A stretch of DNA of 32,000 nt from Acaryochloris thomasi RCC1774 (GTDB taxonomy: Bacteria > Cyanobacteriota > Cyanobacteriia > Thermosynechococcales > Thermosynechococcaceae), in NCBI RefSeq assembly GCF_003231495.1, contig NZ_PQWO01000012.1, positions 1 through 32,000 on the forward strand, in the 5' to 3' direction. A program made the translations under genes and the position numbers. This document shows, in pieces, positions 9,055 through 31,672 of the stretch. A model generated the notes under the pieces. That model saw only the letters and a program-made list of their open reading frames with translations, made no database searches and was not told the DNA's origin. The stretch's first letter is position 1, and each line of letters opens with the position of its first letter.

Positions 9055-9136
9055 TGCGGATGAAAGGACTTGAACCTTCACACCTCTCGGTACTAGAACC
9101 TAAATCTAGCGCGTCTACCAATTCCGCCACATCCGC
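9055..9136 (-). tRNA. trnL-UAG: tRNA-Leu (anticodon UAG), class II with a long variable arm; CCA is not encoded
   Basis: The reverse complement is GCGGATGTGGCGGAATTGGTAGACGCGCTAGATTTAGGTTCTAGTACCGAGAGGTGTGAAGGTTCAAGTCCTTTCATCCGCA. It folds with acceptor GCGGATG/CATCCGC, anticodon stem CTAGA/TCTAG around loop TTTAGGT, variable arm ACC-GAGA-GGT, and T arm GAAGG-TTCAAGT-CCTTT. Confidence 0.92.
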
Positions 9137-11694: not shown

Positions 11695-12516
11695 TTAGCC
11701 AAAACGTCCAGAAACGTAGTCGCGGGTGTAGTCTTCTTTGGGATTGGTAAAGATATTAACGGTGTCGTCATACTCCACGAGGTAACCGCGCTTGCTACCT
11801 TGATCGGTGGCCTCAGCGTTAAAAAATGCTGTTTTGTCAGACACACGGGATGCTTGCTGCATATTGTGCGTCACAATCACAATTGTGTATTGCTCTTTCA
11901 GTTCTTGCATCAATTCCTCAACGCGAAGCGTAGAAATGGGGTCAAGCGCTGAGCAAGGTTCATCCATCAGGATGACTTCGGGTTGAACCGCGATCGCACG
12001 GGCAATACAAAGCCGCTGCTGCTGACCACCCGATAGAGACAAACCACTCTCATTGAGCTTGTCTTTAACTTCATCCCACAACGCAGCGCGGGTCAAAGAG
12101 GTCTCCACTAACTCATCCATATCCCCTTTGTAGCCATTAATTCTGGCTCCGAAGGCAATGTTGTTGTAGATAGATTTAGGGAAAGGATTTGGCTTTTGAA
12201 ACACCATCCCGATCCGACGACGAACCTCTACCGGATCGACCTGTTTGGCATAGAGATCAATTCCCTGGAACGTAATATTGCCCTTGACTTGAGCACCAGG
12301 TATCAAGTCATTGGTGCGATTGAAGCACCGCAACAGCGTACTTTTACCACAGCCAGAAGGACCAATAAACGCTGTGATTTGATATTGAAAAATATCGAGA
12401 AAAACATTACTCACAGCAACGGTCGAGCCGTATAGGATCGAAACATCCTCGGCACGGAGTAGAGGTTGAGTTGCCTTGAGATTAGGGGAACCAGTTTGAG
12501 AGGGTGAAGCAGTCAT
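11695..12516 (-). CDS. pstB: Phosphate ABC transporter ATP-binding protein
   Basis: 273 aa. It has Walker [10 protein letters not shown], the PstB-typical [13 protein letters not shown], signature LSGGQQQRL and Walker B ILMDEP. It is the last gene of a pstS-C-A-B array. Confidence 0.93.
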
Positions 12517-12562
12517 AGTTCAGAGGTAGCAAGACACGTCATGGGAAAGGGATAACAGTGAC

Positions 12563-13465
12563 CTAAAACACTTTTCTTCGAGTCAAATAGCGAGACATGA
12601 TGCTGATGAACAGAATCAGTAGAATAATAACCAGTGAAGCAACCCAGGCCAGCTCCTGCTGATTCTGATACGGAGAAATTGCAAAGTTATAGATCAGTAC
12701 AGACAGCGTTGCAACAGGTTCCCAAGGGCCATTGAAGCCAAACTGGCTAAACAAAGCCGTGAACAAGAGTGGGGCGGTTTCTCCAGCGGCCCTTGCCAGC
12801 GATAACGTTATCCCTGTTGCAATAAATGGCATCACGGCGGGTATAACAACTCGGCTGATAGTCTGAAAATCATTGGCTCCCACACCAATAGAAGCAAGAC
12901 GAATCTCTCGGGGGATAGATTTAAGACCTTCTTCAACGGTACGGATCACAATCGGCACCATCAGCACCGACAGCGCGACTCCTCCAGCAACCGCAGAAAA
13001 GTTACCCGTCGTCAGTACAACAATGCCGTAGGCAAACAGACCCGCAATAATGGATGGCACGCCGCTCAAAACATTCGTGCAAAACCGAACGATCCCTGCT
13101 GCCTTCGTGCCTCGGCCAAACTCCACGGTATAAATTGCTGTCAGGATACCGATCGGTACGCTTAAGAGAGAACCAATCAGCAGTGTAATGAGGGTGCCAA
13201 AGAACGCATTCCTCATCCCTCCGCCCTTCACCAGCGGTGGCGGTGGCAGCTCCGTGAAAATATCAACATCGAGCCGACCGCCTCCCTTGATGAAGACATT
13301 CAGCAGAATGGCCACCAGAGGAATCAATGCAATGAGGGTGCAGCCAACAACTAAGGCCGTCATTATGCTCCCAAAAAATCGACGACGAGCATCGGCAGGC
13401 GCATATAACTCGGCAGTCGCTCCCTGCCCAAGAGTGGAATTAGATTGTTGCGGAGAGTCGGCCAT
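12563..13465 (-). CDS. pstA: Phosphate ABC transporter permease
   Basis: 300 aa polytopic membrane protein with an EAA-like loop (LARAAGETAPLLF). It lies between pstC and pstB. Confidence 0.88.
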   Translation of the reverse strand: MADSPQQSNSTLGQGATAELYAPADARRRFFGSIMTALVVGCTLIALIPLVAILLNVFIKGGGRLDVDIFTELPPPPLVKGGGMRNAFFGTLITLLIGSLLSVPIGILTAIYTVEFGRGTKAAGIVRFCTNVLSGVPSIIAGLFAYGIVVLTTGNFSAVAGGVALSVLMVPIVIRTVEEGLKSIPREIRLASIGVGANDFQTISRVVIPAVMPFIATGITLSLARAAGETAPLLFTALFSQFGFNGPWEPVATLSVLIYNFAISPYQNQQELAWVASLVIILLILFISIMSRYLTRRKVF

Positions 13466-13505
13466 AATTGATTCGCAGTAATGTTGCTCGCCCGTAATGA
13501 AGGAA

Positions 13506-14471
13506 CTATTCGACCTGTTGGAAGCGGTTAATAACCACTTCTGCCAACATATTGACGCTCAGCGTTATCAGCATCAAAATCAGAGCAGAATACATGAGAG
13601 AGGCCACCTGCAGTCCTGTTGCCTCTGCGAACTGATTTGCAATCAGAGACGCAATGGTTGCCGCAGGAGCCAAAATAGAACTTTTGATTTGGTTGGCGTT
13701 GCCAATGAGCATGGCCGCCGCCATCGTCTCGCCTAGCGCCCGTCCTAAGGCAAGCATCACTGATCCAATAATGCCGGAGAGTCCGGCAGGAAGCAAAACC
13801 TTGAGGATGGTTTCCCAGCGAGTTGCGCCTAGAGCTAATGAGCCTGCTCGCAACTGTGGCGGTAGAGAAGTAAGAGTATCCCGAGATAAAGAGATAATAA
13901 TCGGTGAAATCATCACCGCTAAAACCATTGCCGTGGGCAGCATGGCCCGCGTTTGTGGTGGCGTGTTGAACAGCGGTATCCAGCCCAGAGTGTCGTGAAA
14001 CCAACCGAGCACCGGCAGGATGGCCGGGACTAGCACAAAAATGCCCCACAAGCCGTAAACAACGCTTGGAATGGCGGCCAACAGCTCGATCATGAAGGCG
14101 ATGGGAGTACGAACCTTAGTCGGCAGGAAGTCTTCACTGAGAAAAATCGCAACCCCAACCCCCAGCGGAACCGCCATCAGAAGGGCCAAAATCGCACTCA
14201 CCACTGTTCCATATATTTGAGGCAGCATCCCGTAGATACTTTCGACGGGATTCCATCGGGTTGTGATCAAGAACCCTAAACCAAATTCTTGGACGGCAGG
14301 TAATGCTGTTGTAAATAATTCAACTGTGATCCACAGCAGAATCAGGGCGATACTGGCTGCGCTGATAGCCGTCATGCCATAGAAGACCCGATTGACAAAC
14401 CAAGAGAAATCTCGATTTTGAGCGAGTTGCGGCTGAGATTGAGCTACAGATTTGTCTGCTAGCGAGTCCAT
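13506..14471 (-). CDS. pstC: Phosphate ABC transporter permease
   Basis: 321 aa polytopic membrane protein with an EAA-like loop (LALGRALGETMAAAML). It lies directly downstream of pstS. Confidence 0.88.
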   Translation of the reverse strand: MDSLADKSVAQSQPQLAQNRDFSWFVNRVFYGMTAISAASIALILLWITVELFTTALPAVQEFGLGFLITTRWNPVESIYGMLPQIYGTVVSAILALLMAVPLGVGVAIFLSEDFLPTKVRTPIAFMIELLAAIPSVVYGLWGIFVLVPAILPVLGWFHDTLGWIPLFNTPPQTRAMLPTAMVLAVMISPIIISLSRDTLTSLPPQLRAGSLALGATRWETILKVLLPAGLSGIIGSVMLALGRALGETMAAAMLIGNANQIKSSILAPAATIASLIANQFAEATGLQVASLMYSALILMLITLSVNMLAEVVINRFQQVE

Positions 14472-14515
14472 AATGATCGTCTATGTAATAACGGCTATAT
14501 CAGTTAGCAGCTATC

Positions 14516-15613
14516 TTAGCCTTCGCCGAGATAGCTGATTCTTTCCTTAACACGCTCGATCAGGTCAGCCTCTAAAGGAATGTAGCCCAACTCTTCTGCG
14601 AACTTTTGTCCGTCGGTGAGAGACCAATCCATTACCGCCTTGAGGGCTTTGGCTTTGTTGGCATCTTCATACTTTGGATACAGCAGTAGCCAAGTCAGTC
14701 CTGCGATCGGATAGGCATCAGGATTTTCTGGGTCAGGAACCACGAGTGCAAAGTCGTCGGGTACGGTCTCGCCTTGGAATACCAGGGCGGCTGACTCTGG
14801 CGTTGGTGCAATAATGTTTCCGGACTTATTCTCAATGGCAGCCGCTGGAAGGCCGTTTTCTTTGGCGTACGCATATTCAACGTAGCCGATCGCACCTTCG
14901 GTTTGCTGAATCTGAGCCGTAATTCCTTCGTTGCCTTTGGCACCCGTGCCCACGGGCCACTCGACTGACTTACCACTGCCGGCAGGCCAGTCTGAGCAGG
15001 CTGCTTCTATGTGGGTGGTGAACAAAAAGGTTGTACCACTACCGTCGGAACGATGAACCCAACTGATGGGTTGACTGGGCAGAGTGGCGTCAGGATTGGC
15101 TTTCGTGATAGCAGGGTCGTCCCAAGTCTTGATTTTGCCTGTGACGATGCCGCAGTAGTCTTCTCGAGAGAGTTTCAGCTCTTCAACACCCGGTAGGTTG
15201 AAGGCGAACACAACACTTCCTGAGGTCATCGGAACCTGAACCGGCCCCTCTGGATACTGTTCAGTAAACTTCGCGCGCTCTTCATCTTTGATAGGCGCAT
15301 CACTAGCTCCAAAATCTACGGTGCCAGATAAGTATTGCTCAACACCCGCACCACTACCAACAGATTGATAGCTGACTTGAACACCAGAATTTTCTTTATT
15401 GTACTCAGAAAACCAACGCTGATAGAGCGGGGCTGGGAAGGAAGCTCCGGCGCCACTTAAGCTAGCGCTCAAATCGCTGCCAGCACTGTCGCCGCCTGCG
15501 TCAGATGTTGAGGGGGCCTCGCTTACATCACCACCACAGGCAGTCGCACCTAGCGCTACCAGTAACCCGAGAGCCCAGGATAGGCGTCCCGTTGATCGAA
15601 CTTGAAGGCTCAT
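14516..15613 (-). CDS. pstS: Phosphate-binding lipoprotein of the Pst system
   Basis: The ATG at 15613 gives MSLQVRSTGRLSWALGLLVALGATACGG, a lipoprotein signal. The track start at 15637 is GTG. It carries the PstS motif GAGASFPAPLYQRWF. Confidence 0.9.
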   Translation of the reverse strand: MSLQVRSTGRLSWALGLLVALGATACGGDVSEAPSTSDAGGDSAGSDLSASLSGAGASFPAPLYQRWFSEYNKENSGVQVSYQSVGSGAGVEQYLSGTVDFGASDAPIKDEERAKFTEQYPEGPVQVPMTSGSVVFAFNLPGVEELKLSREDYCGIVTGKIKTWDDPAITKANPDATLPSQPISWVHRSDGSGTTFLFTTHIEAACSDWPAGSGKSVEWPVGTGAKGNEGITAQIQQTEGAIGYVEYAYAKENGLPAAAIENKSGNIIAPTPESAALVFQGETVPDDFALVVPDPENPDAYPIAGLTWLLLYPKYEDANKAKALKAVMDWSLTDGQKFAEELGYIPLEADLIERVKERISYLGEG

Positions 15614-15665
15614 AGATTTTCCGAAGCTATACACCACATTGATGGCTTGATATTAAAGCTTTTGC

Positions 15666-20227: not shown

Positions 20228-21892
20228 ATGAAGCGAGTCCTGCCCCCTTTTCCCACTTTCCTGCTGTGGACAATGAGTTTCGGAATAGCCTCCTTTGGCA
20301 TCACGTCTGCTCAGGCGGCTGAGCGTATCTATGCTTCCTATGGTTCTTTCGAGCGATCGGTTTCGGTCAAAGCGCTGGAAGTCTACGCCAAAGAGGGCAG
20401 GGTCACGGGCGATCTCGGGATCTATCTCCGCTATCTTAAGCCTGAACGCCGACGCCAGTTCCGGGCCGCTCTGCAGCAGCGAGCGACGCTAACCCCCGTC
20501 TCGATTGCCCAGTTTCTATATGCTCCCGTTGGTGAACAGCTCCTAAAGCGGGCTGAGAAAGTGGTACAGCCCAAGTCTGGCGTCGGTGGATTCTTTGCCC
20601 TACGTGCTGCGTTAATTTTGGCGGCGGCGGATCCCGAAGGGCTAACGTTTCTCAATCTGCTCAAGGCCTACCCCACTGAAGGGATTCAAGTTGACCTGGC
20701 CGAAGGCTTAAGCACGTTTTCCCAAGGGCGCAAGCTGATCCAAAAGACAGATCAGGCCGTGGCCTCAATTGAAGCCACCGCTGAGGTTACACCACCCCCA
20801 GCGCTGACGGCTGCAGGCCGCAGTCTCGCCACAGCCGGTGCGTTTACCTCGAAAAAAGTCTCCCTTAATCTAGAAGACAGTACACCACTGCGGCTCGATT
20901 ATGCGGGCAAGTCTCGCCCGTTTCCCGTTGATGTGTATCTGCCCCAAGGTACCCCTGGTCCCCGCCCCGTAATTGTGATTTCCCACGGGCTAAATTCCGA
21001 TCGTCAGTCCTATGCTTATTTAGCTGAACATCTAGCGTCTCATGGGTTTGCAGTGGCGGTCCCGGAACATACCGGCAGCAATACGGACCAGCTTTTAGAT
21101 TTGCTGGCGGGCCGCGCCAGCGAGGTGCCCAGTGCCACTGAATTTGTCGATCGTCCGCTAGATGTTAAGTTCTTGCTCGATGATTTGCAGATGAGATCGC
21201 AAACTGACCCCACTTTCAAAGACAGGCTCAACCTCAAGCAGGTGGGTGTTATTGGCCAATCGTTCGGGGGCTACACCGCCCTAGCGCTGGCGGGAGCACC
21301 GCTCAACTTTAATCGACTGCAGCAGGACTGCCGCCAGAATCTTGCAGACACACTCAACCTGTCGCTGGTGCTCCAGTGTCAGGCGCTGCGACTCGCGGGC
21401 CGAGACTATCAGCTTGCTGACCCACGCATTAGGGCGGCGATCACCATTAACCCTGTCGGCAGCAGTTTGTTCGGCCCCGCGAGCATGGGAAAAATTCAAG
21501 TTCCGATCATGGTGGTAACGGGGAATGCCGACACCATTGCCCCTGCATTACCGGAGCAAATCCGGCCTTTCTCTTGGCTGACTAGCCCCCAGAAATATTT
21601 GGCCTTGATTAGGAAAAGCACGCATTTTTCCACCATCGACGAGCCAGAGGAAGCAGCAGCAGAACCGATTCCTACGTCCCCTCAAATTATTGGACCGTCC
21701 CCAGAACTGGCCCGCACCTATATTGGGGCGCTGAGTACAGCGTTTATGCAAACCCATGCCGCCCAGCAGCCGCGCTATCAAACGTATCTCTCATCTGACT
21801 ACGCCGCCGCGCTGAGCCAGTCTTCGCTGCCCCTCAGCTTAATCGAGGCGCTGCCTGAACCCGGGGAGGGTGAGCTGGAAGATCAGACGTAG
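20228..21892 (+). CDS. Secreted DUF1400-domain / alpha-beta hydrolase fusion protein
   Basis: 554 aa. A signal peptide (...GITSAQA|AE) is followed by a DUF1400-like N-domain (AERIYASYGSFERSVSVKALEVYAKEGRV...). The hydrolase core has VIVISHGLNSDRQSYAYLAEHLASHGFAVAVPEH and the nucleophile elbow GQSFGG. Confidence 0.8.
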   Translation: MKRVLPPFPTFLLWTMSFGIASFGITSAQAAERIYASYGSFERSVSVKALEVYAKEGRVTGDLGIYLRYLKPERRRQFRAALQQRATLTPVSIAQFLYAPVGEQLLKRAEKVVQPKSGVGGFFALRAALILAAADPEGLTFLNLLKAYPTEGIQVDLAEGLSTFSQGRKLIQKTDQAVASIEATAEVTPPPALTAAGRSLATAGAFTSKKVSLNLEDSTPLRLDYAGKSRPFPVDVYLPQGTPGPRPVIVISHGLNSDRQSYAYLAEHLASHGFAVAVPEHTGSNTDQLLDLLAGRASEVPSATEFVDRPLDVKFLLDDLQMRSQTDPTFKDRLNLKQVGVIGQSFGGYTALALAGAPLNFNRLQQDCRQNLADTLNLSLVLQCQALRLAGRDYQLADPRIRAAITINPVGSSLFGPASMGKIQVPIMVVTGNADTIAPALPEQIRPFSWLTSPQKYLALIRKSTHFSTIDEPEEAAAEPIPTSPQIIGPSPELARTYIGALSTAFMQTHAAQQPRYQTYLSSDYAAALSQSSLPLSLIEALPEPGEGELEDQT

Positions 21893-21973
21893 TGCGCTGA
21901 CGCTTCTCACCAGAGCATTTCAGGGTTTTACTGAGTATGCCCAAGGGTGCCCAGGAAGCATCGTCCAGAGGTT

Positions 21974-22615
21974 TTACTGGGGTGTGGGCTGCGAGCGACT
22001 CGGTGCCGAAGCGCCTGGGTTGCAGTCGCAAACAAACGTTTCAATCAGATCAGTTGCGATCGCAAGTGGCACCTTCAGGTCTTCTTCTGCACTGCTAATG
22101 AACCGATTGACTCGCCCCGCCGTTTGCGCCAACTGAAAGCCATCCACAACCAGATCGTTGGTGGGATAGCGCTGCAGAAACTCAAGAAACGAAATTTCAC
22201 CATCGTCGCTCAAAGACAGCAGAATCGAAGATCGCAACGCCTGAATATTGCTCCGCCGCGTTGGCGTATGGAGAACTTCACCCGTTTGGAACAAGATGTA
22301 CTCGCCCGGAATCTTGTGCAAGAGGTTGTCGGCCAGCGTCAGGCTAACCTTGGCCTCCTGCGTCATAAACTTACGGGCTTGCTCAGGATCCTGACCTGAC
22401 GCCCGTAACAAGAACTTCAGATTAGGAGAAGTCTTACCGGTTTCAACAAACGTCTCTAGCTCATTGAGCGTCAGCGTCCGGCCAAAAGAGCCAAAGGTCA
22501 GCACCACTTTCTCTGCCGCAGCAGCAGGACGAGGCATCGTAACGGCTGAGATGGCCAACGCTGCCGCTGCTGAAAGTCCCCACAAACGCACGATATTCGA
22601 GCGCAGAAATGACAT
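21974..22615 (-). CDS. Secreted stand-alone DUF1400-domain protein (paralog A)
   Basis: The ATG at 22615 gives a signal peptide MSFLRSNIVRLWGLSAAAALAISAVTMPRPAAA|AE. The track start at 22630 is TTG. AEKVVLTFGSFGRTLTLNELETFVETGK... aligns by eye with the hydrolase N-domain. The C-terminus carries FVCDCNP. Confidence 0.7.
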   Translation of the reverse strand: MSFLRSNIVRLWGLSAAAALAISAVTMPRPAAAAEKVVLTFGSFGRTLTLNELETFVETGKTSPNLKFLLRASGQDPEQARKFMTQEAKVSLTLADNLLHKIPGEYILFQTGEVLHTPTRRSNIQALRSSILLSLSDDGEISFLEFLQRYPTNDLVVDGFQLAQTAGRVNRFISSAEEDLKVPLAIATDLIETFVCDCNPGASAPSRSQPTPQ

Positions 22616-22667
22616 GATTAAACTCCGCAATATAGGATTTTGTCACCAAAGCTGGCCGATTCAGGCA

Positions 22668-23459
22668 CTACTGATCGACCGGCTGAGGGTCTAGAGACTT
22701 GAGCAAAGACTGAAACGTCTCCTCCGTCAGAGCGGTCTCATCTGTCAGAACGGTCTCATCCGGGAGCGGAACCGCTTTAGTCAGAGTTGTCGCCTTATTG
22801 CAGTTCGCATGGGTGGTCGCGTCACGGTAAGAATGCGCTCCATCTTTGACCGGCTGAACGGTAGACGTGTTAGACGCCTCTTGAGCAGGATCGCAGTCAC
22901 AAACGATATCTTGCAGAACGCCTTTCGCTACTTCTAAGGCCGGTAGAACCTTCTCAACAAAACCACTGACATCGTTGTAGGTGCTCTCTAGGTTGGTGAG
23001 ATCGACTCGAATCGTATCCATAGGGTGCCGATCGATGATCTCAAGAAAGGAGACTTGGCGATCGTCGATTGAATCTAAGACCGCTGACTTCAGCGCCTCT
23101 AGATCTGCCTCTGTCCGACCGGAGGAACTGCTAATGGCCTTGTCGAGCTGCAGGAACAAAAACTCACCATTCTTGCTCTGCAAAAAGTTCTCCACGAATG
23201 TCGGAATCTGAATGTCGCGGGTCAAGATATTGCGGAACGTGGTGGGTAAAGCCTCGTCAGTATTCAACAGATCTTGCAAAGCCGTCGGAATCGTTCCAGT
23301 TTCAGAGAAAGTATTAATCTCTGACTGGCTGACGGTGACCTCTTCACCTTTGTAACTGACGCGAATGTTCTCAGCCGCTTGTGTCTTGTTTGCCAGCAGC
23401 GGAATGCTAACAGCGCTGGCCAGACCGACGATTAACCAGGAAAAGAATTTAGGCTTCAT
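22668..23459 (-). CDS. Secreted stand-alone DUF1400-domain protein (paralog B) with an acidic Thr/Glu-rich tail
   Basis: The ATG at 23459 gives a signal peptide MKPKFFSWLIVGLASAVSIPLLANKTQA|AE. The longer track ORF starts at GTG 23747, and its extra 96 aa do not look protein-like. AENIRVSYKGEEVTVSQSEINTFSETGT... is DUF1400-like and is followed by IVCDCDP. Confidence 0.7.
   Translation of the reverse strand: MKPKFFSWLIVGLASAVSIPLLANKTQAAENIRVSYKGEEVTVSQSEINTFSETGTIPTALQDLLNTDEALPTTFRNILTRDIQIPTFVENFLQSKNGEFLFLQLDKAISSSSGRTEADLEALKSAVLDSIDDRQVSFLEIIDRHPMDTIRVDLTNLESTYNDVSGFVEKVLPALEVAKGVLQDIVCDCDPAQEASNTSTVQPVKDGAHSYRDATTHANCNKATTLTKAVPLPDETVLTDETALTEETFQSLLKSLDPQPVDQ
22726..22761. repeat. 18 bp tandem repeat, two copies, within the paralog B tail
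   Basis: gtcagagcggtctcatct (22726-22743) is followed by gtcagaacggtctcatcc (22744-22761), with 2 mismatches. On the minus strand it encodes DETVLT-DETALT. Confidence 0.85.
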
Positions 23460-23734
23460 GAGACTTTTTCCTACAGTGAAACATTGAATTGACCGTTGAG
23501 TTTGAGGCGAAGAAAACTTCAGCGATACCTCAGCTTCAGTAACAAACCCGTAATCTCTACTCAAGCATTTTGGGGTCTCTCTGTCATCTACTTCAGGGCT
23601 GAAATTGAGGCGGTGGACCCAAGCCCGTCGCGAGGGATCCCTTTCGCTGTCGAGCGTCACGATGGGGAGCAGAGCGTCAATACGAATTATGTCTATCGGC
23701 GGGCGATTTCTGTTCATAGCGTTAGAACAGAAAT

Positions 23735-24268
23735 ATGGGTACCTCACATCGCATCTATTGGCTATTGGGAATCACGGCTGTCTTCAGCGGTGTCGCTTTG
23801 TTCGTGACCCAAATGGGGTTAATCAAACCCGGCATTGCTAGTCCCGAGGGGCTTCGCGCTCCAGGGGGCATTGCAGCTGCCATCGAAGACCGCTCCTTAG
23901 CTTTGCATTCTGAGGGCATTAAAAAAGCACTTCTGGGCGACTATCCCAGCGCCATCTCTGACTATGATCGGGCCTTGATGTTGTCTCCCAAAAACCCTGA
24001 GATTTACTACAATCGTGCCGTTGCGCATTACTCAGCGGGCCACTCTGAGCAAGCAGTACAGGATTTTGACCGTGCCATTCAACTCCAGCCGACGATGGCC
24101 GAAGCCTATGCCAATCGCAGCACGCTGCACCTAGAGATCGGCGACCCGGCTAGAGCGCTGGCAGATGGGCAAAGGGCGGCAGATCTGTTTGAGCAGCAAG
24201 GTGAGCCTGGTCTAGCCACAGAGATTCGAGACTGGCTACGGCAGCATAAAATTAGGGCCATCCATTAG
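23735..24268 (+). CDS. TPR-repeat protein with an N-terminal membrane anchor or signal sequence
   Basis: 177 aa with an ATG start. The hydrophobic N-terminus (YWLLGITAVFSGVALFV) is followed by three TPR units (AISDYDRALMLSPKNPEIYYNRAVAHY..., AVQDFDRAIQLQPTMAEAYANRS...). Confidence 0.8.
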   Translation: MGTSHRIYWLLGITAVFSGVALFVTQMGLIKPGIASPEGLRAPGGIAAAIEDRSLALHSEGIKKALLGDYPSAISDYDRALMLSPKNPEIYYNRAVAHYSAGHSEQAVQDFDRAIQLQPTMAEAYANRSTLHLEIGDPARALADGQRAADLFEQQGEPGLATEIRDWLRQHKIRAIH

Positions 24269-24327
24269 CTTTCTGCAGAAGACTGAAGAGAAGCTGGCGA
24301 ATAGAATTCGCGCCTACTAAGAACGAA

Positions 24328-24343
24328 GTCTGCCTCCGCAGAC
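24328..24343 (-). terminator. Terminator-like hairpin on the minus strand
   Basis: The minus strand reads GTCTGC-GGAG-GCAGAC followed by TTCGTTCTT. It lies about 205 nt downstream of the bestrophin stop and inside the dubious 60 aa ORF 24252..24434. Confidence 0.35.
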
Positions 24344-24549
24344 TATACACATTAAGGCTTTCGATAATCCGCGCAGCGATTTTGTCTTTGTAGCTGCGAT
24401 GCCCACCGCCAAAGGAGAAAGTGTTATCAGCCAACCCGATATAGCGGTACGCATATTGATGAGGATATTAAAATGGTTGAACACCATGTCCGCTCAGGAA
24501 GGGCTGCCCTAACTCAGACGCGTATTGCTCTATATCAATGTCCTAGGCT

Positions 24550-25488
24550 CTAGCTTGCGGCCTGCAGATTTGGTTCCACTATCGGTGAGTCAGTATTGCC
24601 ACCCAAGGCCAGAACGCCTTCGACATTGTTAACAATGGTGGTGCAGATGTCGTCCAGCGGTAGGTCATTAGCGTTGCACCCAAATGGATTCTCTAGCTCA
24701 CGCCCCACTTCTTCTACGCCCAGCAGCAAGAAGCTGACAATAGCCATAATGGGGACCGACCACCAGGTTAATTCAGGAACGGTTCTGAAGGGCAGACCAA
24801 TGCAGTAAATCAAAATCAAACGCTTCAGAAAAACACGATAGGCAATGGGAATAGGAGTGGTAATAATCCGTTCGCAGCTGCTTACGCCTTCAATAAGGCT
24901 GTTGAGCATGGCGTTGGCATTGGCCACTAGCGTCTCGGTTACTTGACCTGCCTCTAGCTGCTGCTGGAGATAGCTGCGAATCCAAAACGCAATGTCGAGG
25001 GGACAATGCTTTGAGGTCTTGAGCTGTTCTGCTTGCGCGGGGGTGATTAATGCTTTGAGTTCATCGCTGGGGGCTTCGCCACGCAGATGGAGTTTGGTTG
25101 CGATCGCAAAGGCAGACAGCAGCCGAATCGCGTCCCGTTTCTCAGCCGGATCGGCATCCACGCCAATCTGTAGTTCACGGGCTAGGTTGCGAATGTTAAC
25201 AACCAACGCCCCCCAAGCCTTGCGACCTTCCCAAAAGCGGTCGTAGGAGGTGTTGGTGCGAAAGACAATCAGGAGGCCAAGGACGAGGTTGAAGATCACA
25301 TTCGTGGTCAGGCCGCCCAGCTTTTCTAGGTAAATTGGATACTCTAAGGCATTGATGAGGGCAATAAAACCCGCAAAGCCACAGAAAGCAAGAATTCGCG
25401 GCAAAACCATCAGCACGACTGAGCCCTGAAGCTGAAAGGTCGTGGCAAACCAGTTGGGTTTCTCTAACTTATCGGCGGCGATCGCCAT
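24550..25488 (-). CDS. Bestrophin-family (UPF0187/YneE-like) ion channel
   Basis: 312 aa with the family motif VFRTNTSYDRFWEGRKAWG after two N-terminal TM helices. Its ATG overlaps the upstream MscS stop (TAATG). Confidence 0.8.
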   Translation of the reverse strand: MAIAADKLEKPNWFATTFQLQGSVVLMVLPRILAFCGFAGFIALINALEYPIYLEKLGGLTTNVIFNLVLGLLIVFRTNTSYDRFWEGRKAWGALVVNIRNLARELQIGVDADPAEKRDAIRLLSAFAIATKLHLRGEAPSDELKALITPAQAEQLKTSKHCPLDIAFWIRSYLQQQLEAGQVTETLVANANAMLNSLIEGVSSCERIITTPIPIAYRVFLKRLILIYCIGLPFRTVPELTWWSVPIMAIVSFLLLGVEEVGRELENPFGCNANDLPLDDICTTIVNNVEGVLALGGNTDSPIVEPNLQAAS

Positions 25489-26387
25489 TAATTTTCTCCT
25501 TGCTGAGCGAGAGTCTGATCACCGCTTTCCATGTGATCATCAAATTTCTCTTGGTCAAACATATACACCGTCCGAATCGGGTAGGGAATCGAGATGTTGT
25601 TGCGATCGCAAGCCTGCTTGAGTGCAATCATCACCTTCGTCTTAATTCGTCGTACCTGGGCAATTTGGGGCGCGGTCCAGTAGCGAACCACCAGATCAAT
25701 CGAGCTATCGCCGAATCCCACAATATCGACTTCAGAAGACGGGTCGAGATGGATTCCTTCAATATCATTGAGGGCATTTAAGAGCGTATCCCTCGCCATT
25801 GGCAGAGGCGTATTGTAGTCCACGCCAATTTCTAGATCCGTCCGGCGCTGCGGCTTTTTCGTCAGCACCTGCACCGGACTCGTGAACACAATGGAGTTGG
25901 GCATCACAATCAGCTCACCTTGATAGGTGCGAATCTGAGTTGAACGCAGCGCGATGCCCTCTACGGTGCCTTCGTAGTCTTCAACGATAATCTGATCGCC
26001 TAAAGAAAACGGCTCCTGTAGCAAAAGCAGAATCCCGGCCAAAAAGTTTTTGAAAATATCCTGGAAGGCAAAACCAATGGCCACAGAACCTAAACCCAGC
26101 AGGCCAATGATGTCTCCCAGCGCTAGCCCAGGAAATGCTGCGATACAGGCAACGAGGATACCCACGGTCCAGGCCAATACGAAGCTCGTCTGTGAGATCA
26201 GCAGCCGTAGCGATGTGCTTTTGATCGCCTGTGCCGCCACCCGCGAGGCCACCCGTTGGGCGACACCGGCCAGATACCGTGTGGCCACCAAAATGAAGAT
26301 GCCGAACAGAAAGCCAGGTAAGGTGGCAACGCCTTTCCCTACTAGCTCTAGCAGGGTTGTCTTGATCTCTGACAGAAATTCGGTCAT
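25488..26387 (-). CDS. Small-conductance mechanosensitive channel (MscS family), 299 aa
   Basis: The pore helix and beta domain read LGLGSVAIGFAFQDIFKNFLAGILLLLQEPFSLGDQIIVEDYEGTVEGIALRSTQIRTYQGELIVMPNS. Confidence 0.85.
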   Translation of the reverse strand: MTEFLSEIKTTLLELVGKGVATLPGFLFGIFILVATRYLAGVAQRVASRVAAQAIKSTSLRLLISQTSFVLAWTVGILVACIAAFPGLALGDIIGLLGLGSVAIGFAFQDIFKNFLAGILLLLQEPFSLGDQIIVEDYEGTVEGIALRSTQIRTYQGELIVMPNSIVFTSPVQVLTKKPQRRTDLEIGVDYNTPLPMARDTLLNALNDIEGIHLDPSSEVDIVGFGDSSIDLVVRYWTAPQIAQVRRIKTKVMIALKQACDRNNISIPYPIRTVYMFDQEKFDDHMESGDQTLAQQGEN

Positions 26388-26410
26388 GGGGTTTTAAAAA
26401 GAGGACAGAC

Positions 26411-26764
26411 TTACGACTTTGCGATTGCTCTTTCCAAGAGTAAATTGAGAGCAGTCCGAACGCCAATGATAATGGCTAAGCGTCCGATATCTTCCCACTG
26501 ACTCGAAATCATGGTTTTGAGAATGGTGGCTCCAATTAAAAAGCTGAGTCCCAAAGAGAAGGAGTAGCCCATTTCTAGACGACTCTGCTGAAAAGCAGTT
26601 TGAGTGTGGGGCTGCAGAAAAGCATTTTTAAGGAAGATAAAGAACGCTTTGACCACACCCGTCAAAATCACGAATAGAGCCAATAGCTGACACACGCTGG
26701 TCAAAATACCATTGAGGATAACAACAGTAATCTCTAAACTCATCGAAACGGATTCAATCGTCAT
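26411..26764 (-). CDS. Small polytopic membrane protein, DUF1622-like
   Basis: 117 aa with an ATG start and 3-4 hydrophobic helices (VVILNGILTSVCQLLALFVILTGVV...YSFSLGLSFLIGATILKT...). It is embedded between MscS genes with gaps of 23-27 nt. The DUF1622 assignment is from memory. Confidence 0.65.
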   Translation of the reverse strand: MTIESVSMSLEITVVILNGILTSVCQLLALFVILTGVVKAFFIFLKNAFLQPHTQTAFQQSRLEMGYSFSLGLSFLIGATILKTMISSQWEDIGRLAIIIGVRTALNLLLERAIAKS

Positions 26765-26791
26765 GGCTTATCGCTGTCCTATACGCTGTGC

Positions 26792-27727
26792 CTACTGACC
26801 CAGATATTGACTATTCCCCTGATTGGTGAGGCTCACGTTAAAGGTTGGTGTTTCGACTAGATGGAATGTCGCAGAAGCCAAAGCAACCTGCCCATCTGTC
26901 TTGTCAATCTCATCTAAGATTTGGGTAAACAAGAGATCTTTCGTGATGCGGCGCTTCTTGAAGTTGACAACGTAGCGAATCGTGAACTCCATCCAGTTAT
27001 CGTTGGCCAGCAGAGTGACGGTGGGTTCGACTTGGGCATCTTCAATCAAAAACTTTTTGACCATCTGATTCCAGTGCTTTTGAGCTTTGGCTGAGTATTC
27101 GCCGACCTGCTCTTTAGCAACCTGCTGCAAGATTCGACGGGCCAAACGATGGTCGCAGCCATATTTGACCGGAATTGTAATCTCGTCCCACAGAAACGGG
27201 AAGTCTCTAGAGTAGTTGTAGACGGGTTCCTTGAAGACAAAGCTATTGGCCACTCGGACAATCCGGCCACTGTAGAGATCGGCCTTTACCCAGGCTCCAC
27301 ACTCCATGAGCGTCGTGCGCAAAATGCTGATGTCAATCACGTCTCCGGTAATGCCGCCAACCTGAACGCGATCGCCCGGTCGGTAGAACTGCCCCAGCGA
27401 AATCGCGGACCAGCCCGCTAAGCTGGCAATCACCTCCTGTAGTGCAAAGGCAATTCCGGCACCCACGACGCCAAAAATCACCGTCAACTGGCCAAGACTG
27501 TCGCTAAATACGCTGGCCGCGAACAACAGCATCAGCAGATAGCTCACTAAAGTAACTAGCTTACGAGAGCGATAGCGGGTATCAGCACCTCGAATGTAGT
27601 GAGAGAGTGAGGCGCTAATCGCTCGAAAGATAATTGTGATGACGATGATGCCAATTAGAACCTCTGCAAGCTGGGGGAGAAAGGGGTGAGCGAGAAGCGG
27701 CCTCAATGGTTCAAGAAATTGCTGCAT
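26792..27727 (-). CDS. Mechanosensitive channel (MscS family), 311 aa
   Basis: GAGIAFALQEVIASLAGWSAISLGQFYRPGDRVQVGGITGDVIDISILRTTLME is an MscS pore-helix/beta-domain signature, preceded by three TM helices. Confidence 0.85.
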   Translation of the reverse strand: MQQFLEPLRPLLAHPFLPQLAEVLIGIIVITIIFRAISASLSHYIRGADTRYRSRKLVTLVSYLLMLLFAASVFSDSLGQLTVIFGVVGAGIAFALQEVIASLAGWSAISLGQFYRPGDRVQVGGITGDVIDISILRTTLMECGAWVKADLYSGRIVRVANSFVFKEPVYNYSRDFPFLWDEITIPVKYGCDHRLARRILQQVAKEQVGEYSAKAQKHWNQMVKKFLIEDAQVEPTVTLLANDNWMEFTIRYVVNFKKRRITKDLLFTQILDEIDKTDGQVALASATFHLVETPTFNVSLTNQGNSQYLGQ

Positions 27728-27750
27728 TGTGAGGTTGAGTAATATATCAG

Positions 27751-29532
27751 TTACGGAGAGGGGGGATTGGAAGACTCGTCGACCGGCGGATGATGATCCT
27801 GTTTGAAGAAGTTTGCCAGCGGCGAGATCCGAAATCCAGGGACTTGATAGTCCTTCGGGAAATACTCTTCTGGGACCGCCAGTTGATTGCCATCGCGGGC
27901 GGCAGAATAGTGCGGCGACAAAATTTCGATGCCGACCTCATTGCACTGATCCTGTAGATGCTGATGCAGCTCTGAGTAAATCTTCGCCATGATCGCTGGG
28001 TTTCGGGTGTAGGCGTTGAGTTCATAGCTGACGTAAAAGTCATCCAGGCTCGTCTGGAGCACAAAGGGAAGCGGATCTTCCAGGATGTGTTCGGTGGCCT
28101 GAGCCGATTTGATCAAGACCTTATGTACTTTACGCCAGGGCACGTCGTAACCCAGCGTAATCGTCGTGTGCAAAATCAGCGGGGGCGTCTTGGGATCGCG
28201 GACCGAGCCACTGTAGTTGATAATGTGGCTCCCCAACACCATGGCGTTCGGGATAGTGACGATCACGTTCTTAATGGTGTTGATGCGGGTGACCAGCAGG
28301 GTTTTTTCCACCACATCGCCGATAGAGTCGCTAATTTTGACGCGATCGCCCACCACGAAAGCCCGCGAATAGGTCAAGATGATCCCGGCTACAAAGTTCG
28401 CCACCGCGCCACTGGAACCTAGGGAAAACAGCACGCCGATGAAGACTGAAATCCCCTGAAAAGCTGGCGTTTGGGCACCTGGCAAGTAGGGGAAAGCAAT
28501 GGTGGCGGCGAGGGCAATCACTACAAAACGCACCAGGTTGTAGGTCGGCTTTGCCCATTCAGGATAAAAGCCTGGGATATTGATGACACCACGGCGAATT
28601 TGAGTGAAGAAGAACCGGATCAGCCGCAGGGTATAGTTCGTTAGGACGATAATCAGCCCCAAGAAGAATAGATTGGGTAGGTAGGTGACAATCTGCCCCC
28701 AAAATCGCTCCAGAGTCCAGCCCATGAACTTAAAGAGTCGCCGTGCCGCTCCCTGAGTCCAGGGGAAAAAGCTCAGAATCAGGTTGAGGTAGATGATCCC
28801 GAGTAGTACAAAGACCGTGAGCCTTAGAAGCTTGAGTACCTCTGTTAGGACATCAACCACGCGGTCAGCCGGAACGATCTCAGCCCTGAACAACCGCAGT
28901 CCCCGGATGCGATTGCCCTGCCAGGTTCTGAGATTACGGTTGAGGATGGCGATACTGCGGTTGGCGAGGGTGAAGAGGCCCACGGTGACGATGGTGAGCA
29001 GCGTGGCATACAGCAGCCCCAGCAAAATGTTCTGAAGTTGAAAAGACTCTCGGTAGGCTTGGACGGCGGCTTTAATATCGCTCAGATTGGTCTCTGCAAG
29101 CTGCTGCCGGGTGGTGTTGGCGGCTTTTGCATCGGCATCTAAAATCGTGACGAGGGTTTCGTTGTCGATTCTGATATCTGTGGTTTGCGTCTGCTGGTTG
29201 TCAACAATCGTCAGCGCGTCAACTTTGAGATCGTTGCGTTTTGCCAGCTTTAGTAAGCGTTCTGAAATAGTTTGGGCCCGAAACTTGGGCGAAAAAGACC
29301 CCACCCCGGCTTTAATTTCAAAGAGCTGCTTCCCCTGCAGAACCACCCAAGACTCTAATGACTCTGGCATTGTGATTACGCCCGTGGGTACCGGTTCTGG
29401 CGAGATCGCAGGTGCCGCAGAGGGCGAGGGGCTAGGGTCGGACTGAGCTAAGGCCGGAGGGCAAAGGGTGAGTGCGATCGCAAGTAAAGCACCCCAAAAT
29501 CGAGCACGACCGAGCCAGGAAGGAAGCATCAT
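27751..29532 (-). CDS. Large mechanosensitive channel (MscS family), 593 aa, with a signal peptide and an N-terminal periplasmic domain
   Basis: The signal peptide MMLPSWLGRARFWGALLAIALTLCPPALA is followed by a Pro/Ser linker, a soluble domain of about 150 aa, TM helices, and the MscS core GSSGAVANFVAGIILTYSRAFVVGDRVKISDSIGDVVEKTLLVTRINT. Confidence 0.85.
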   Translation of the reverse strand: MMLPSWLGRARFWGALLAIALTLCPPALAQSDPSPSPSAAPAISPEPVPTGVITMPESLESWVVLQGKQLFEIKAGVGSFSPKFRAQTISERLLKLAKRNDLKVDALTIVDNQQTQTTDIRIDNETLVTILDADAKAANTTRQQLAETNLSDIKAAVQAYRESFQLQNILLGLLYATLLTIVTVGLFTLANRSIAILNRNLRTWQGNRIRGLRLFRAEIVPADRVVDVLTEVLKLLRLTVFVLLGIIYLNLILSFFPWTQGAARRLFKFMGWTLERFWGQIVTYLPNLFFLGLIIVLTNYTLRLIRFFFTQIRRGVINIPGFYPEWAKPTYNLVRFVVIALAATIAFPYLPGAQTPAFQGISVFIGVLFSLGSSGAVANFVAGIILTYSRAFVVGDRVKISDSIGDVVEKTLLVTRINTIKNVIVTIPNAMVLGSHIINYSGSVRDPKTPPLILHTTITLGYDVPWRKVHKVLIKSAQATEHILEDPLPFVLQTSLDDFYVSYELNAYTRNPAIMAKIYSELHQHLQDQCNEVGIEILSPHYSAARDGNQLAVPEEYFPKDYQVPGFRISPLANFFKQDHHPPVDESSNPPSP

Positions 29533-29919
29533 AGTGTCAGCTCATACGGGGCACAAAATCTTACTTTAGCGTCCTACAACACGCACCTGAATCCAACTCT
29601 ATCCTGGTCTGCTAGAGCCAAGTAGACATCAAGTGTCGTCAGCGCTGGCTGCTGCCCCATATGCGTTAAACAGAAGAAATCCTTAAATTCGGCTATCCAA
29701 GCCCTGCTCTATCTCAGGACTGATGGCAGATCACAAATTTCTACGTTTCAATAGAGATAAGGGCTTTGACTTGTGAGTAGTCAGGGCGCATCTTTCGCTT
29801 ATTCTTCTCTAACTTTTCGTCAAACGAACGGTCGTTTTCTCTACTGAACGCCACTCCCCTACGGGTACCTCATCATGACCTACACCATCCCCCAGGCAGC
29901 TGGCTGGGACTCGCCAGCC

Positions 29920-30972
29920 ATGCCATCTAAATCTCGATCTTGGCTGCAATCTCTAAAACGCTTCGGTCGACTATCCTATGACATTGGGATTGATTTAGGA
30001 ACATCAAACACGGTGATCCATATTCCTGAGCAGGGCATTGTGGTGCGCGAGCCGTCGATCTTGGCGATGCAGGCAGAAACGCAGGAGCCACTCGCCATCG
30101 GTGCCGGTGCGCGGCAGATGCTGGGACGCAATGCCAGCGATGTGAGGGTAGAACGTCCCATCTGTAATGGTGTGGTGGCTGAATTTGATCTGGCTAAGCT
30201 GATGCTGCAGCACTTCTTGGAGCGGGCTGGCGCTCGCGTCTTGAATCCGCGCATTGCCGTTGGCTGCTCCAGTGGCGCTACCGAGGTCGAACGCTGGGCC
30301 TTGACTGATTTAGTACTACAGACCGGCGCGCGCAAAGCCTATCTAATTGACGAGCCAATTGCCGCCGCAATCGGAGCGGGTTTGCCGGTTAATCAACCCA
30401 TGGGTAACTTGATTATTGATATGGGTGGGGGAACTACTGAAGTCTCCGTTGTCAGCCTGTTGGGCATCGTGGCCAATGCTGCGATCCCGATTGCGGGGAA
30501 CAGTCTGGACCAAGCAGTTAAAGACTATTTTCGACACACCCACGACCTGCGTATTGGGGAGTTGATGGCTGAGAGTCTGAAGATCAAGTACGGCTCTGCG
30601 GTGCCGGATAATGCCCTCGACAATACCCCTGTTGAAGTCGTGGGCCTGCTGTTGCGTACGGGGCTTACAGGAACCGTCAAAATTCAGCGCGGGGATCTAC
30701 GGGCTGCCCTAGCTAAACCCTTATCGGCCATTGTGAAGACCGTTAAACAGGTTCTGGGTCAAATTTCGCCAGAGCTGATGTCTGATATTTGCGATCGCGG
30801 TTTGTTATTGACTGGGGGCGGCGCTCTGATCCCCGGTCTTGACGCGCTGCTGCGTCAAGAGATGGGCCTGATGGTTCACATTGTCGAGAATCCGCTCGAC
30901 AGCGTGGCGATTGGAGCTAGTTCGGCTCTGCAAAATCGTCACTACGAAAACGTTCTTCATTTGGCCTCTTAA
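29920..30972 (+). CDS. mreB: MreB/Mbl-family actin-like ATPase
   Basis: The ATG at 29920 gives MPSKSRSWLQSLKRFGRLSYDIGIDLGTSNT, a typical MreB N-terminal length. An alternative ATG lies at 29875. Phosphate-1 DLGTSNT, phosphate-2 DMGGGTTE and adenosine motif LTGGGALIPGLD are all intact. Confidence 0.8.
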   Translation: MPSKSRSWLQSLKRFGRLSYDIGIDLGTSNTVIHIPEQGIVVREPSILAMQAETQEPLAIGAGARQMLGRNASDVRVERPICNGVVAEFDLAKLMLQHFLERAGARVLNPRIAVGCSSGATEVERWALTDLVLQTGARKAYLIDEPIAAAIGAGLPVNQPMGNLIIDMGGGTTEVSVVSLLGIVANAAIPIAGNSLDQAVKDYFRHTHDLRIGELMAESLKIKYGSAVPDNALDNTPVEVVGLLLRTGLTGTVKIQRGDLRAALAKPLSAIVKTVKQVLGQISPELMSDICDRGLLLTGGGALIPGLDALLRQEMGLMVHIVENPLDSVAIGASSALQNRHYENVLHLAS

Positions 30973-31672
30973 CTTGAGGGGAGCGCAGTTTCTGGAGCTT
31001 CAGCAGCGTGACGCAGATGCTTAACCACAGAAAGCCAATGCCATAGCCGCCCATAATATCGGTGGGCCAGTGAACCCCGAGATACAGCCGACTGAGGCCA
31101 ATAGTGCTGATCAAGAGACTGGCAAGACTGTAGAAGACCACTGAAAATCGAGGGTAGAGGGTGGCTAACACATAGGCAAGAAATCCATAGAGGATCATCG
31201 ATCCCAGTGCATGACCGCTGGGGTAGCTAAAGGTTGTTTCGTTGATCAGCTGCGGCCATAGCTGAGGACGAACTTTGCCGAAGACGAGCTTGAGTCCAAT
31301 ACCCAGAATGGCTCCACCGATGCAGTTCAGACCAAAAACATAGGCTTCAGCTCGATGGCGCTGCCACCAGAGCCATGCAAAGCTGCCCACTGAAACCGGC
31401 ACGACAATCACAGGATTGCCAAGGTGGGTAATCGTGAGCATCACAGCATCCAATGTTGGATTGGCAAACTGGTGAATCCAGAGCAGTGTGGTTTGATCAA
31501 AGGCAAAAGCTTCTTGCTCTAGCACTTCGTTAGAGAGCTTTGCGATCGCAACCAGAACGAGCAAACAAGTGCCTAGCCCCACCGTGCCCAGTGTCGCGAC
31601 CAGAGTTCTCAAAGGGGAATGAAAGCTGCGGACCCAAATATTGGCAAGCCTCTTCAGCACTTGTTCAGGCAT
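30917..31672 (-). CDS. PAP2-family membrane phosphatase (phosphatidic acid / undecaprenyl-diphosphate phosphatase-like)
   Basis: 251 aa with the three PAP2 motifs KLVFGKVRP, YPSGHA and SRLYLGVHWPTD. Its 3' end overlaps the mreB-like 3' end by 56 bp. Confidence 0.85.
   Translation of the reverse strand: MPEQVLKRLANIWVRSFHSPLRTLVATLGTVGLGTCLLVLVAIAKLSNEVLEQEAFAFDQTTLLWIHQFANPTLDAVMLTITHLGNPVIVVPVSVGSFAWLWWQRHRAEAYVFGLNCIGGAILGIGLKLVFGKVRPQLWPQLINETTFSYPSGHALGSMILYGFLAYVLATLYPRFSVVFYSLASLLISTIGLSRLYLGVHWPTDIMGGYGIGFLWLSICVTLLKLQKLRSPQVKRPNEERFRSDDFAEPN

Follow-up and report, generated by a model that had tools for sequence, protein, structure and literature searches.

An array of three divergent MscS genes, a DUF1622 gene, and a bestrophin gene in Acaryochloris thomasi, joined from two smaller units

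The sequence analysed was a 32,000-nucleotide (nt) stretch of the marine cyanobacterium Acaryochloris thomasi RCC1774 (positions 1 to 32,000 of contig NZ_PQWO01000012.1; hereafter the window), and the subject of this work was a co-oriented array of five genes within it, encoding three MscS-family mechanosensitive channel proteins, a DUF1622 protein, and a bestrophin. The five genes, from first to fifth, were assigned by the open reading frame (ORF) map and Pfam, with protein lengths in amino acids (aa); the last line gives a motif at the junction of the fourth and fifth genes:

27751-29532, minus strand: MscS, 593 aa, first gene
26792-27727, minus strand: MscS, 311 aa, second gene
26411-26764, minus strand: DUF1622, 117 aa, third gene
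25488-26387, minus strand: MscS, 299 aa, fourth gene
24550-25488, minus strand: Bestrophin_2, 312 aa, fifth gene
25496..25501, minus strand: Shine-Dalgarno-like AAGGAG 7 nt ahead of the bestrophin ATG, lying within the 3′-terminal part of the 299-aa MscS ORF

The intergenic gaps within the array were 23, 27, and 23 nt, none of them roomy enough for a full promoter, and the last junction was a 1-nt overlap, in which the bestrophin ATG and the stop of the 299-aa MscS ORF shared 1 nt (TAATG). Because of the AAGGAG motif and the TAATG overlap, these last two genes are probably translationally coupled. The gene identities, strand, coordinates, and gaps given in a first-pass annotation of this DNA agreed exactly with the ORF map and Pfam, and its picture of operon-like packing on a single strand held; Pfam and hydropathy also bore out that every product is a membrane protein. 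All five products belonged to known families, and no new kind of system was required to account for them.

The beta-domain profile of the MscS family, PF00924 (gathering score 20.2 bits), was matched by all three MscS proteins, which displayed three architectures: (i) the 593-aa protein (PF00924: 1.1e-17, 64.3 bits; C-terminal domain PF21082: 1.4e-13, 51.5 bits) had a signal-like hydrophobic segment at residues 12-30, a Pro/Ser-rich linker, a hydrophilic domain of ~110 aa that is probably periplasmic (the hydropathy profile gave a hydrophilic region of ~130 aa), and ~5 transmembrane segments followed by the beta-domain and the C-terminal domain; (ii) the 311-aa protein had ~3 transmembrane segments and matched PF00924 alone (1.2e-09, 38.6 bits), Pfam giving no PF21082 match, and its C-terminal domain appears too divergent for that profile; and (iii) the 299-aa protein had ~3 transmembrane segments and matched both PF00924 (1.5e-19, 70.3 bits) and PF21082 (6.2e-12, 46.2 bits). 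Hydrophobic segments ended at about residues 394, 101, and 111 of the 593-, 311-, and 299-aa proteins, and PF00924 matched just after them, at 377, 99, and 110, respectively. Judged from hydropathy, each protein is predicted to carry a pore-lining helix before the beta-domain and an odd number of transmembrane segments, with the N terminus outside and the C terminus inside. The first-pass architectures, including the signal peptide and periplasmic domain of the 593-aa protein, agreed with these hydropathy profiles.

The MscS-family channels of Escherichia coli (MscS, YnaI, MscK, MscM, and YbiO) are homoheptameric, tension-gated osmotic release valves, and their genes are scattered around the genome. 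The three proteins of the window resembled them in having a hydrophobic pore helix immediately ahead of the beta-domain, in aligning to solved MscS/MscK chains across the pore, the beta-domain, and (less surely for the 311-aa protein) the C-terminal region, and in occurring as a set of differently sized paralogs within a single organism, which is the norm for the family. PDB sequence searches aligned the products with E. coli MscS, MscK, MscM, and YnaI chains, starting at E. coli MscS residue 71 or earlier: the 593-aa protein matched MscK 7uw5 (5e-16) and MscS 2oau, with its residues 331-540 aligned, and the 299-aa protein, a canonical small MscS and the nearest of the three paralogs to E. coli MscS, matched MscS chains at 1.5e-25 over residues 41-274. 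The differences were threefold: (i) the window held three such genes in one co-oriented array of 5 kilobases (kb); (ii) the 593-aa protein, with its signal peptide, small extracytoplasmic domain, and ~5 transmembrane segments, was of intermediate architecture and distinct from MscK and MscM; and (iii) none of the three reached the NCBIfam equivalog cut-offs for MscS, MscK, or MscM, the 593-aa protein scoring at best 56.2 bits (MscK, cut-off 991) and the 299-aa protein 124.6 bits (Helicobacter-type MscS, cut-off 400). By these scores, the three are members of the family, not orthologs of the named channels.

The 311-aa protein fell in a cyanobacterial subfamily that is both widespread and strongly conserved, with homologs 62-81% identical in Rivularia, Anabaena, Crocosphaera, and Fischerella. 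Its AlphaFold 2 model, built from a shallow alignment in which all rows were ≥62% identical, was poor: the predicted local distance difference test score (pLDDT) was 61 overall and <50 in the beta-domain (residues 101-174), and a beta-alpha-beta-beta-alpha unit was modelled at residues 179-275 with pLDDT 75-86. Foldseek searches with this poor model gave top matches that were all E. coli MscS chains (280-294 aligned columns, E ~5e-9, TM-score ~0.3), and the model served solely to confirm a general MscS likeness.

The three MscS paralogs shared pairwise identities of ~24-26%, as divergent as the first-pass annotation had them. Since the identity is so low, they are ancient paralogs, not recent tandem duplicates, and would be functionally diverged channels. 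Their proximity was far beyond chance: with a density of 10 MscS genes per 5 megabases (Mb), or with the background measured over 1.6 Mb of fetched flanks, the probability that any one MscS gene has at least two others within 5 kb was ~2e-5 to 5e-5.

The 312-aa product matched Bestrophin_2 (PF25539) over profile positions 5-287 of 288 (3e-87, 293.2 bits against a cut-off of 27), and its likeness to solved bestrophins extended across the pore-forming helices. KpBest of Klebsiella pneumoniae, whose structure 4wd8 is pentameric, has been reported as cation-selective, and the plant or algal relatives as anion or bicarbonate channels. KpBest (4wd8 and 6iv1) aligned with the window protein at full length (residues 11-289, E = 2e-38); both fell in PF25539 and shared a conserved helix motif (around VFRTN / GFRNS) as well as the motif ELE(N/D)PFG...NDLPL near the C terminus. 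VFRTN and NDLP were invariant across 23 cyanobacterial bestrophin homologs. The overlap with an upstream MscS gene was a feature of the window and is not described for KpBest. A further match, at 1.6e-27, was to chain 7ek1, deposited as 'Bestrophin-like protein', which we take to be the plant VCCN1.

If plastid bestrophins (VCCN1, BST1-3) and plastid MscS-like proteins are taken as the model, the array might act in ion homeostasis of thylakoid or other internal membranes, not in osmotic release at the plasma membrane. The window protein shares with the plastid bestrophins (Arabidopsis VCCN1/Best, Chlamydomonas and diatom BSTs) a superfamily and a photosynthetic lineage, and two articles describe plastid bestrophins as conducting Cl- or HCO3- across thylakoid membranes (PMC5074266, PMC11142338). 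We nevertheless regard a thylakoid role as improbable: the window protein was nearer to the enterobacterial KpBest than to 7ek1, and the signal-like N terminus and extracytoplasmic domain of the 593-aa MscS are compatible with either membrane. The plastid proteins also differ in that they are not encoded beside MscS genes.

The 117-aa product, called DUF1622-like in the first-pass annotation, proved to be a true DUF1622 protein, with a match to PF07784 over profile positions 1-77 of 78 (1e-23, 83.5 bits against a cut-off of 24). It had 3-4 hydrophobic segments by hydropathy, and its AlphaFold 2 model (pLDDT 72.8) comprised three long helices, predicted to form a three-helix bundle. Homologs numbered 386 and were nearly all cyanobacterial. 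Two routes to a function were tried and given up: (i) structure, with no match of the model to PDB folds better than E = 0.5 and no match in a profile search of PDB sequences; and (ii) conserved neighbours, with no common theme among the surveyed loci described below, where the commonest neighbour clusters (pentapeptide-repeat, ABC ATPase, cobyric-acid synthase, CarA, SDR, CysS, and FolB genes) reached at most 17 of 80 loci. A literature search found a single passing mention of DUF1622 and nothing on its function, and exact-protein look-ups of the window DUF1622 protein and of the A. thomasi bestrophin P0125 returned no record.

The gene order was surveyed in a DUF1622-anchored scan of 80 cyanobacterial loci (L001-L080; one genome per species), in which MscS genes were sought by tblastn with the window proteins and by a sensitive jackhmmer MscS screen, and in a bestrophin-anchored metagenome set of 80 loci (bestrophins 33-57% identical). 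Protein relatives of the window genes came from Acaryochloris and from Thermosynechococcaceae metagenome-assembled genomes (MAGs), and the closest recovered relative was L081, from the MAG 'Cyanobacteria bacterium P01_A01_bin.17', assembly GCA_039814705.1, with 94% DNA identity. L081 had the same order as the window, namely 311-type MscS, DUF1622, 299-type MscS, bestrophin (96% identical), and TPR, up to the contig end inside the 311-type gene, and it was the sole contig with the full order, seen there for four genes. The expectation that the five genes form one conserved module was thus not upheld: the MscS-DUF1622-MscS-bestrophin order, for which a synteny check had been proposed, was broken in L168, L002, L083, Acaryochloris marina, and Synechococcus PCC 7336. 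The first-pass annotation had itself named missing conservation of gene order in related genomes as a ground for refutation, and on that test its module largely fell. What recurred instead were two smaller units.

Unit A, composed of a large MscS gene, a 311-type MscS gene, and in some cases a DUF1622 gene, occurred in four or more further lineages. The Thermosynechococcaceae MAGs L001 and L002 each contained large MscS, 311-type MscS, and DUF1622 genes in this order, then a convergent gene, with gaps of 12-26 nt (12 nt and 26 nt in L002, where the trio stopped at DUF1622); L168 contained 593-type (93%), 311-type (81%), and DUF1622 (71%) genes, followed by a 299-type ortholog (84%) in the opposite orientation, with no bestrophin gene beside the 299-type MscS or the DUF1622 gene; and L172 contained a divergent MscS gene and then 593-type (61%) and 311-type (71%) genes, without DUF1622. 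The 593-type ortholog lay directly upstream of the 311-type gene in these four and directly upstream of DUF1622 in L068. Orthologs of the same two MscS genes were 6 kb apart in L169 (Acaryochloridaceae CSU_3_4), and the 311-type gene was solitary in Rivularia PCC 7116 and Crocosphaera ATCC 51142.

Unit B, composed of a 299-type MscS gene and a bestrophin gene, was found in two more contigs: L082 (bestrophin 87% identical) had the same 1-nt overlap, and L083 had 299-type MscS (80%), bestrophin (73%), and BrkB genes in this order, with a 79-nt gap between the MscS and bestrophin genes, DUF308 and two-component genes nearby, and neither DUF1622 nor another MscS near the pair. The A. marina bestrophin (57%) had the 299-type ortholog (54%) 5 kb off on the opposite strand, and that of PCC 7336 (68%) had no MscS gene nearby. 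In L083:2334-7602 and L086/L087:1902-12482, both Acaryochloris-like, the 299-type MscS and bestrophin genes stood amid genes for response regulators, histidine kinases, a PP2C phosphatase, DUF308, BrkB, and Usp, surroundings that suggest a stress-signalling neighbourhood and that were not present in the window.

Among the 80 DUF1622-anchored loci, an MscS gene was present in five (L001, L002, L068, L076, and L080), the remaining 75 having none in the fetched flanks, and a 299-type MscS or bestrophin gene was present in none, 66 of these loci having at least 2 kb of downstream sequence. The five-gene array is a recent, lineage-specific joining of the older units A and B, found only in the window's own species-level lineage, and both units are limited to a narrow Acaryochloris/Thermosynechococcaceae-like clade and are rearranged even there.

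Clusters of MscS paralogs were themselves not confined to the window, and this cyanobacterial group has a real tendency to form them. Three MscS genes each were found in the window, L068, and L172. L068 (L068:1-10883, Leptolyngbyaceae cyanobacterium MO_188.B28, JASJDH010000172.1) carried large MscS, DUF1622, and large MscS genes in this order within a longer single-strand series: partial MscS, DUF1400, alpha/beta hydrolase, a 590-aa protein with four PF05552 (MscS conserved TM helix) repeats, a 262-aa ORF, PRC-barrel, 585-aa MscS, DUF1622, and 592-aa MscS. L068, L172, and L169 resembled the window in having several MscS paralogs within a few kb, with DUF1400/alpha-beta-hydrolase and PRC-barrel genes nearby, and in L068 and L172 a 593-type ortholog stood beside DUF1622 and a 311-type MscS gene, respectively. 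None of the three had a bestrophin gene, their composition and order differed from lineage to lineage, and the 590-aa repeat protein was an addition of L068. No published account of such a five-gene cluster, nor any literature on MscS-bestrophin clusters, was found, in agreement with the first-pass view that it is undescribed.

The fluid gene order could mean that the array is mere juxtaposition, in which independent channel genes were rearranged next to one another and have internal promoters or unrelated roles, with no meaningful functional coupling. The inversion of the 299-type gene in L168, the lack of a bestrophin gene beside DUF1622 in L002 and L168, the separation of the bestrophin and 299-type genes in A. 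marina, the PCC 7336 bestrophin without a nearby MscS gene, and the solitary 311-type genes are all as such an origin would have them. Co-transcription in this genome is favoured, however, by the 23-27-nt gaps and by the Shine-Dalgarno-like motif with the TAATG overlap; moreover, the triple MscS clustering exceeds chance by far and recurred independently in L068 and L172, and units A and B each persisted at 60-80% protein identity. On balance, we consider simple juxtaposition rather unlikely.

A different possibility, physical interaction among the products, would involve mixed heptamers of the large and 311-type MscS proteins and/or DUF1622 as an MscS auxiliary subunit, with the bestrophin perhaps functionally coupled to the 299-type MscS. 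It draws on the tight tandem of large and 311-type MscS genes in at least five lineages, on the position of DUF1622 as the next gene behind an MscS gene in L001, L002, L068, L168, and the window itself, and on the probable translational coupling of the 299-aa MscS and bestrophin ORFs, a type of coupling often seen for subunits of one complex. A more distant DUF1622 gene (31% identical) lay two genes, ~1.5 kb, from a convergent 652-aa MscS-family gene on a Neorhizobium petrolearium plasmid (L174:3513-7320). This alphaproteobacterial plasmid was the single non-cyanobacterial instance of DUF1622-MscS proximity; other rhizobial DUF1622 genes had small membrane proteins or transporters as their context. 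Mixed heptamers are nevertheless unlikely because the paralogs are ~25% identical and differ in transmembrane segment number and C-terminal domain, and the matched PDB entries consist of seven copies of one chain for MscS and five for KpBest. In addition, the 311-type gene is commonly solitary, and DUF1622 had no MscS gene nearby in 75 of the 80 loci and follows a cation:proton antiporter gene on Acaryochloris plasmids. There, DUF1622 was located 9 nt downstream of the antiporter gene (L173:5486-7453, Acaryochloris sp. 'Moss Beach' pMB01; L177:3561-5453, A. marina S15 plasmid). PAP2, PRC-barrel, and MreB-like genes were also close by, much as PAP2 and MreB-like genes adjoin the window array.

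Interaction is accordingly given a low probability, and a heteromeric complex, raised in the first-pass annotation, was not supported by anything tested. The same low standing is given to the narrower proposal that the tandem of the large periplasmic-domain MscS and 311-type MscS genes, with or without DUF1622, encodes a functional unit through co-assembly, cooperative gating, and/or DUF1622 as an auxiliary subunit. We know of no heteromeric or accessory-subunit MscS system described in bacteria. The co-orientation of DUF1622 with ion-transport genes, either MscS or cation:proton antiporter, in some lineages is a minority pattern and offers a weak lead to its role.

The reading that we favour, by a modest measure, is that the array encodes channels that are transcribed together but assemble separately and serve in osmotic and ionic stress, and that it was put together by the joining of units A and B. 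Co-transcription in this genome is likely because of the tight packing and the probable translational coupling within unit B. Transcription would probably start at a single promoter within the 342 nt that precede the 593-aa MscS gene. Each product would most likely assemble on its own, the three MscS-type proteins into homo-oligomeric, tension-gated channels and the bestrophin into a further channel, with DUF1622 as a separate small membrane protein; by analogy with solved family members, the MscS channels would be heptameric and the bestrophin pentameric. Because the three MscS architectures differ, gating threshold and conductance probably differ as well, and co-expression would then equip the cell with graded release valves and an ion conductance to meet osmotic downshift and ionic stress.

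Several observations weigh against a co-transcribed stress set. The full arrangement was unconserved beyond the 94%-identical contig, so selection for co-expressing all five genes would be weak or very recent; the inverted 299-type MscS gene of L168 needs its own promoter there; and promoters may lie inside coding sequence of the array. The DUF1622 neighbours in other loci were unrelated housekeeping genes. Likewise, in the bestrophin-anchored metagenome set, an MscS gene was near the bestrophin in one of 80 loci (L100), on the opposite strand, and an adjacent co-oriented MscS gene was found in none.

The regulatory candidates and the flanking genes were as follows:

29533..29874, no strand assigned: intergenic region of 342 nt between the first array gene and the divergent MreB-like gene
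24327..24344, minus strand: terminator-like hairpin (7-bp stem with 4 G-C pairs, weak T-tail; weak evidence)
20228-23747: three DUF1400 paralogs, a 554-aa DUF1400/alpha-beta-hydrolase fusion on the plus strand and 218-aa and 359-aa proteins on the minus strand
22668-23747, minus strand: the 359-aa DUF1400 ORF, GTG start, with a 13-nt overlap with the start of the divergent TPR gene 23735-24268
29875-30972, plus strand: MreB-like, 365 aa, 3′ end overlapping by 56 nt with the convergent PAP2 gene
30917-31672, minus strand: PAP2, 251 aa, 3′ end overlapping by 56 nt with the MreB-like gene
11695-15637, minus strand: phosphate-type ABC transporter operon (PBP_like_2 binding protein, two permeases, and ATPase), ordinary in appearance
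9055-9136, minus strand: tRNA-Leu (anticodon TAG), found with Rfam, ordinary in appearance

The 342-nt region was the sole non-coding space upstream of the array large enough for a promoter, and a consensus scan found no sigma-70-like site in it; promoter-like sites in the whole region numbered four, against a shuffle expectation of 5.4. The hairpin lay ~205 nt past the bestrophin stop codon, in the gap where the bestrophin and TPR genes converge. Terminator-like sites overall numbered 10, against a shuffle expectation of 7.3 ± 2.4, and those predicted within the array were all inside coding sequence and not above chance. Being at or near shuffle expectation, the promoter and terminator scans were uninformative either way. 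The Rfam scan of the window found a tRNA as its only hit and no regulatory RNA.

The GC content of the array was uniform with that of the flanks, and no mobile-element repeats bounding it were found; the array is therefore not an obvious imported island, and such an origin was rejected. A role in anti-phage defence was likewise rejected, none of the five proteins matching PADLOC-DB models at E ≤ 1e-3. One flank was composed of the three DUF1400 genes, one of them fused to an alpha/beta hydrolase, plus the TPR gene, and the other of the divergent MreB-like gene plus PAP2. DUF1400 and hydrolase genes also adjoined the MscS/DUF1622 cluster of L068, a hint of a shared older neighbourhood. The true start of the 359-aa DUF1400 ORF is probably further downstream, because its DUF1400 domain starts at residue 124 and the L082 ortholog has 258 aa.

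If the five genes are co-transcribed, the array would offer a compact natural set for studying the division of labour among MscS architectures and would help toward establishing what a cyanobacterial bestrophin conducts. The tandem of large and 311-type MscS genes, conserved in the MscS-clustering cyanobacterial group, provides a concrete pair for tests of cooperation; if unit A were indeed a functional unit, its joining with the 299-aa MscS and bestrophin pair would build a multi-channel osmotic/ionic release unit.

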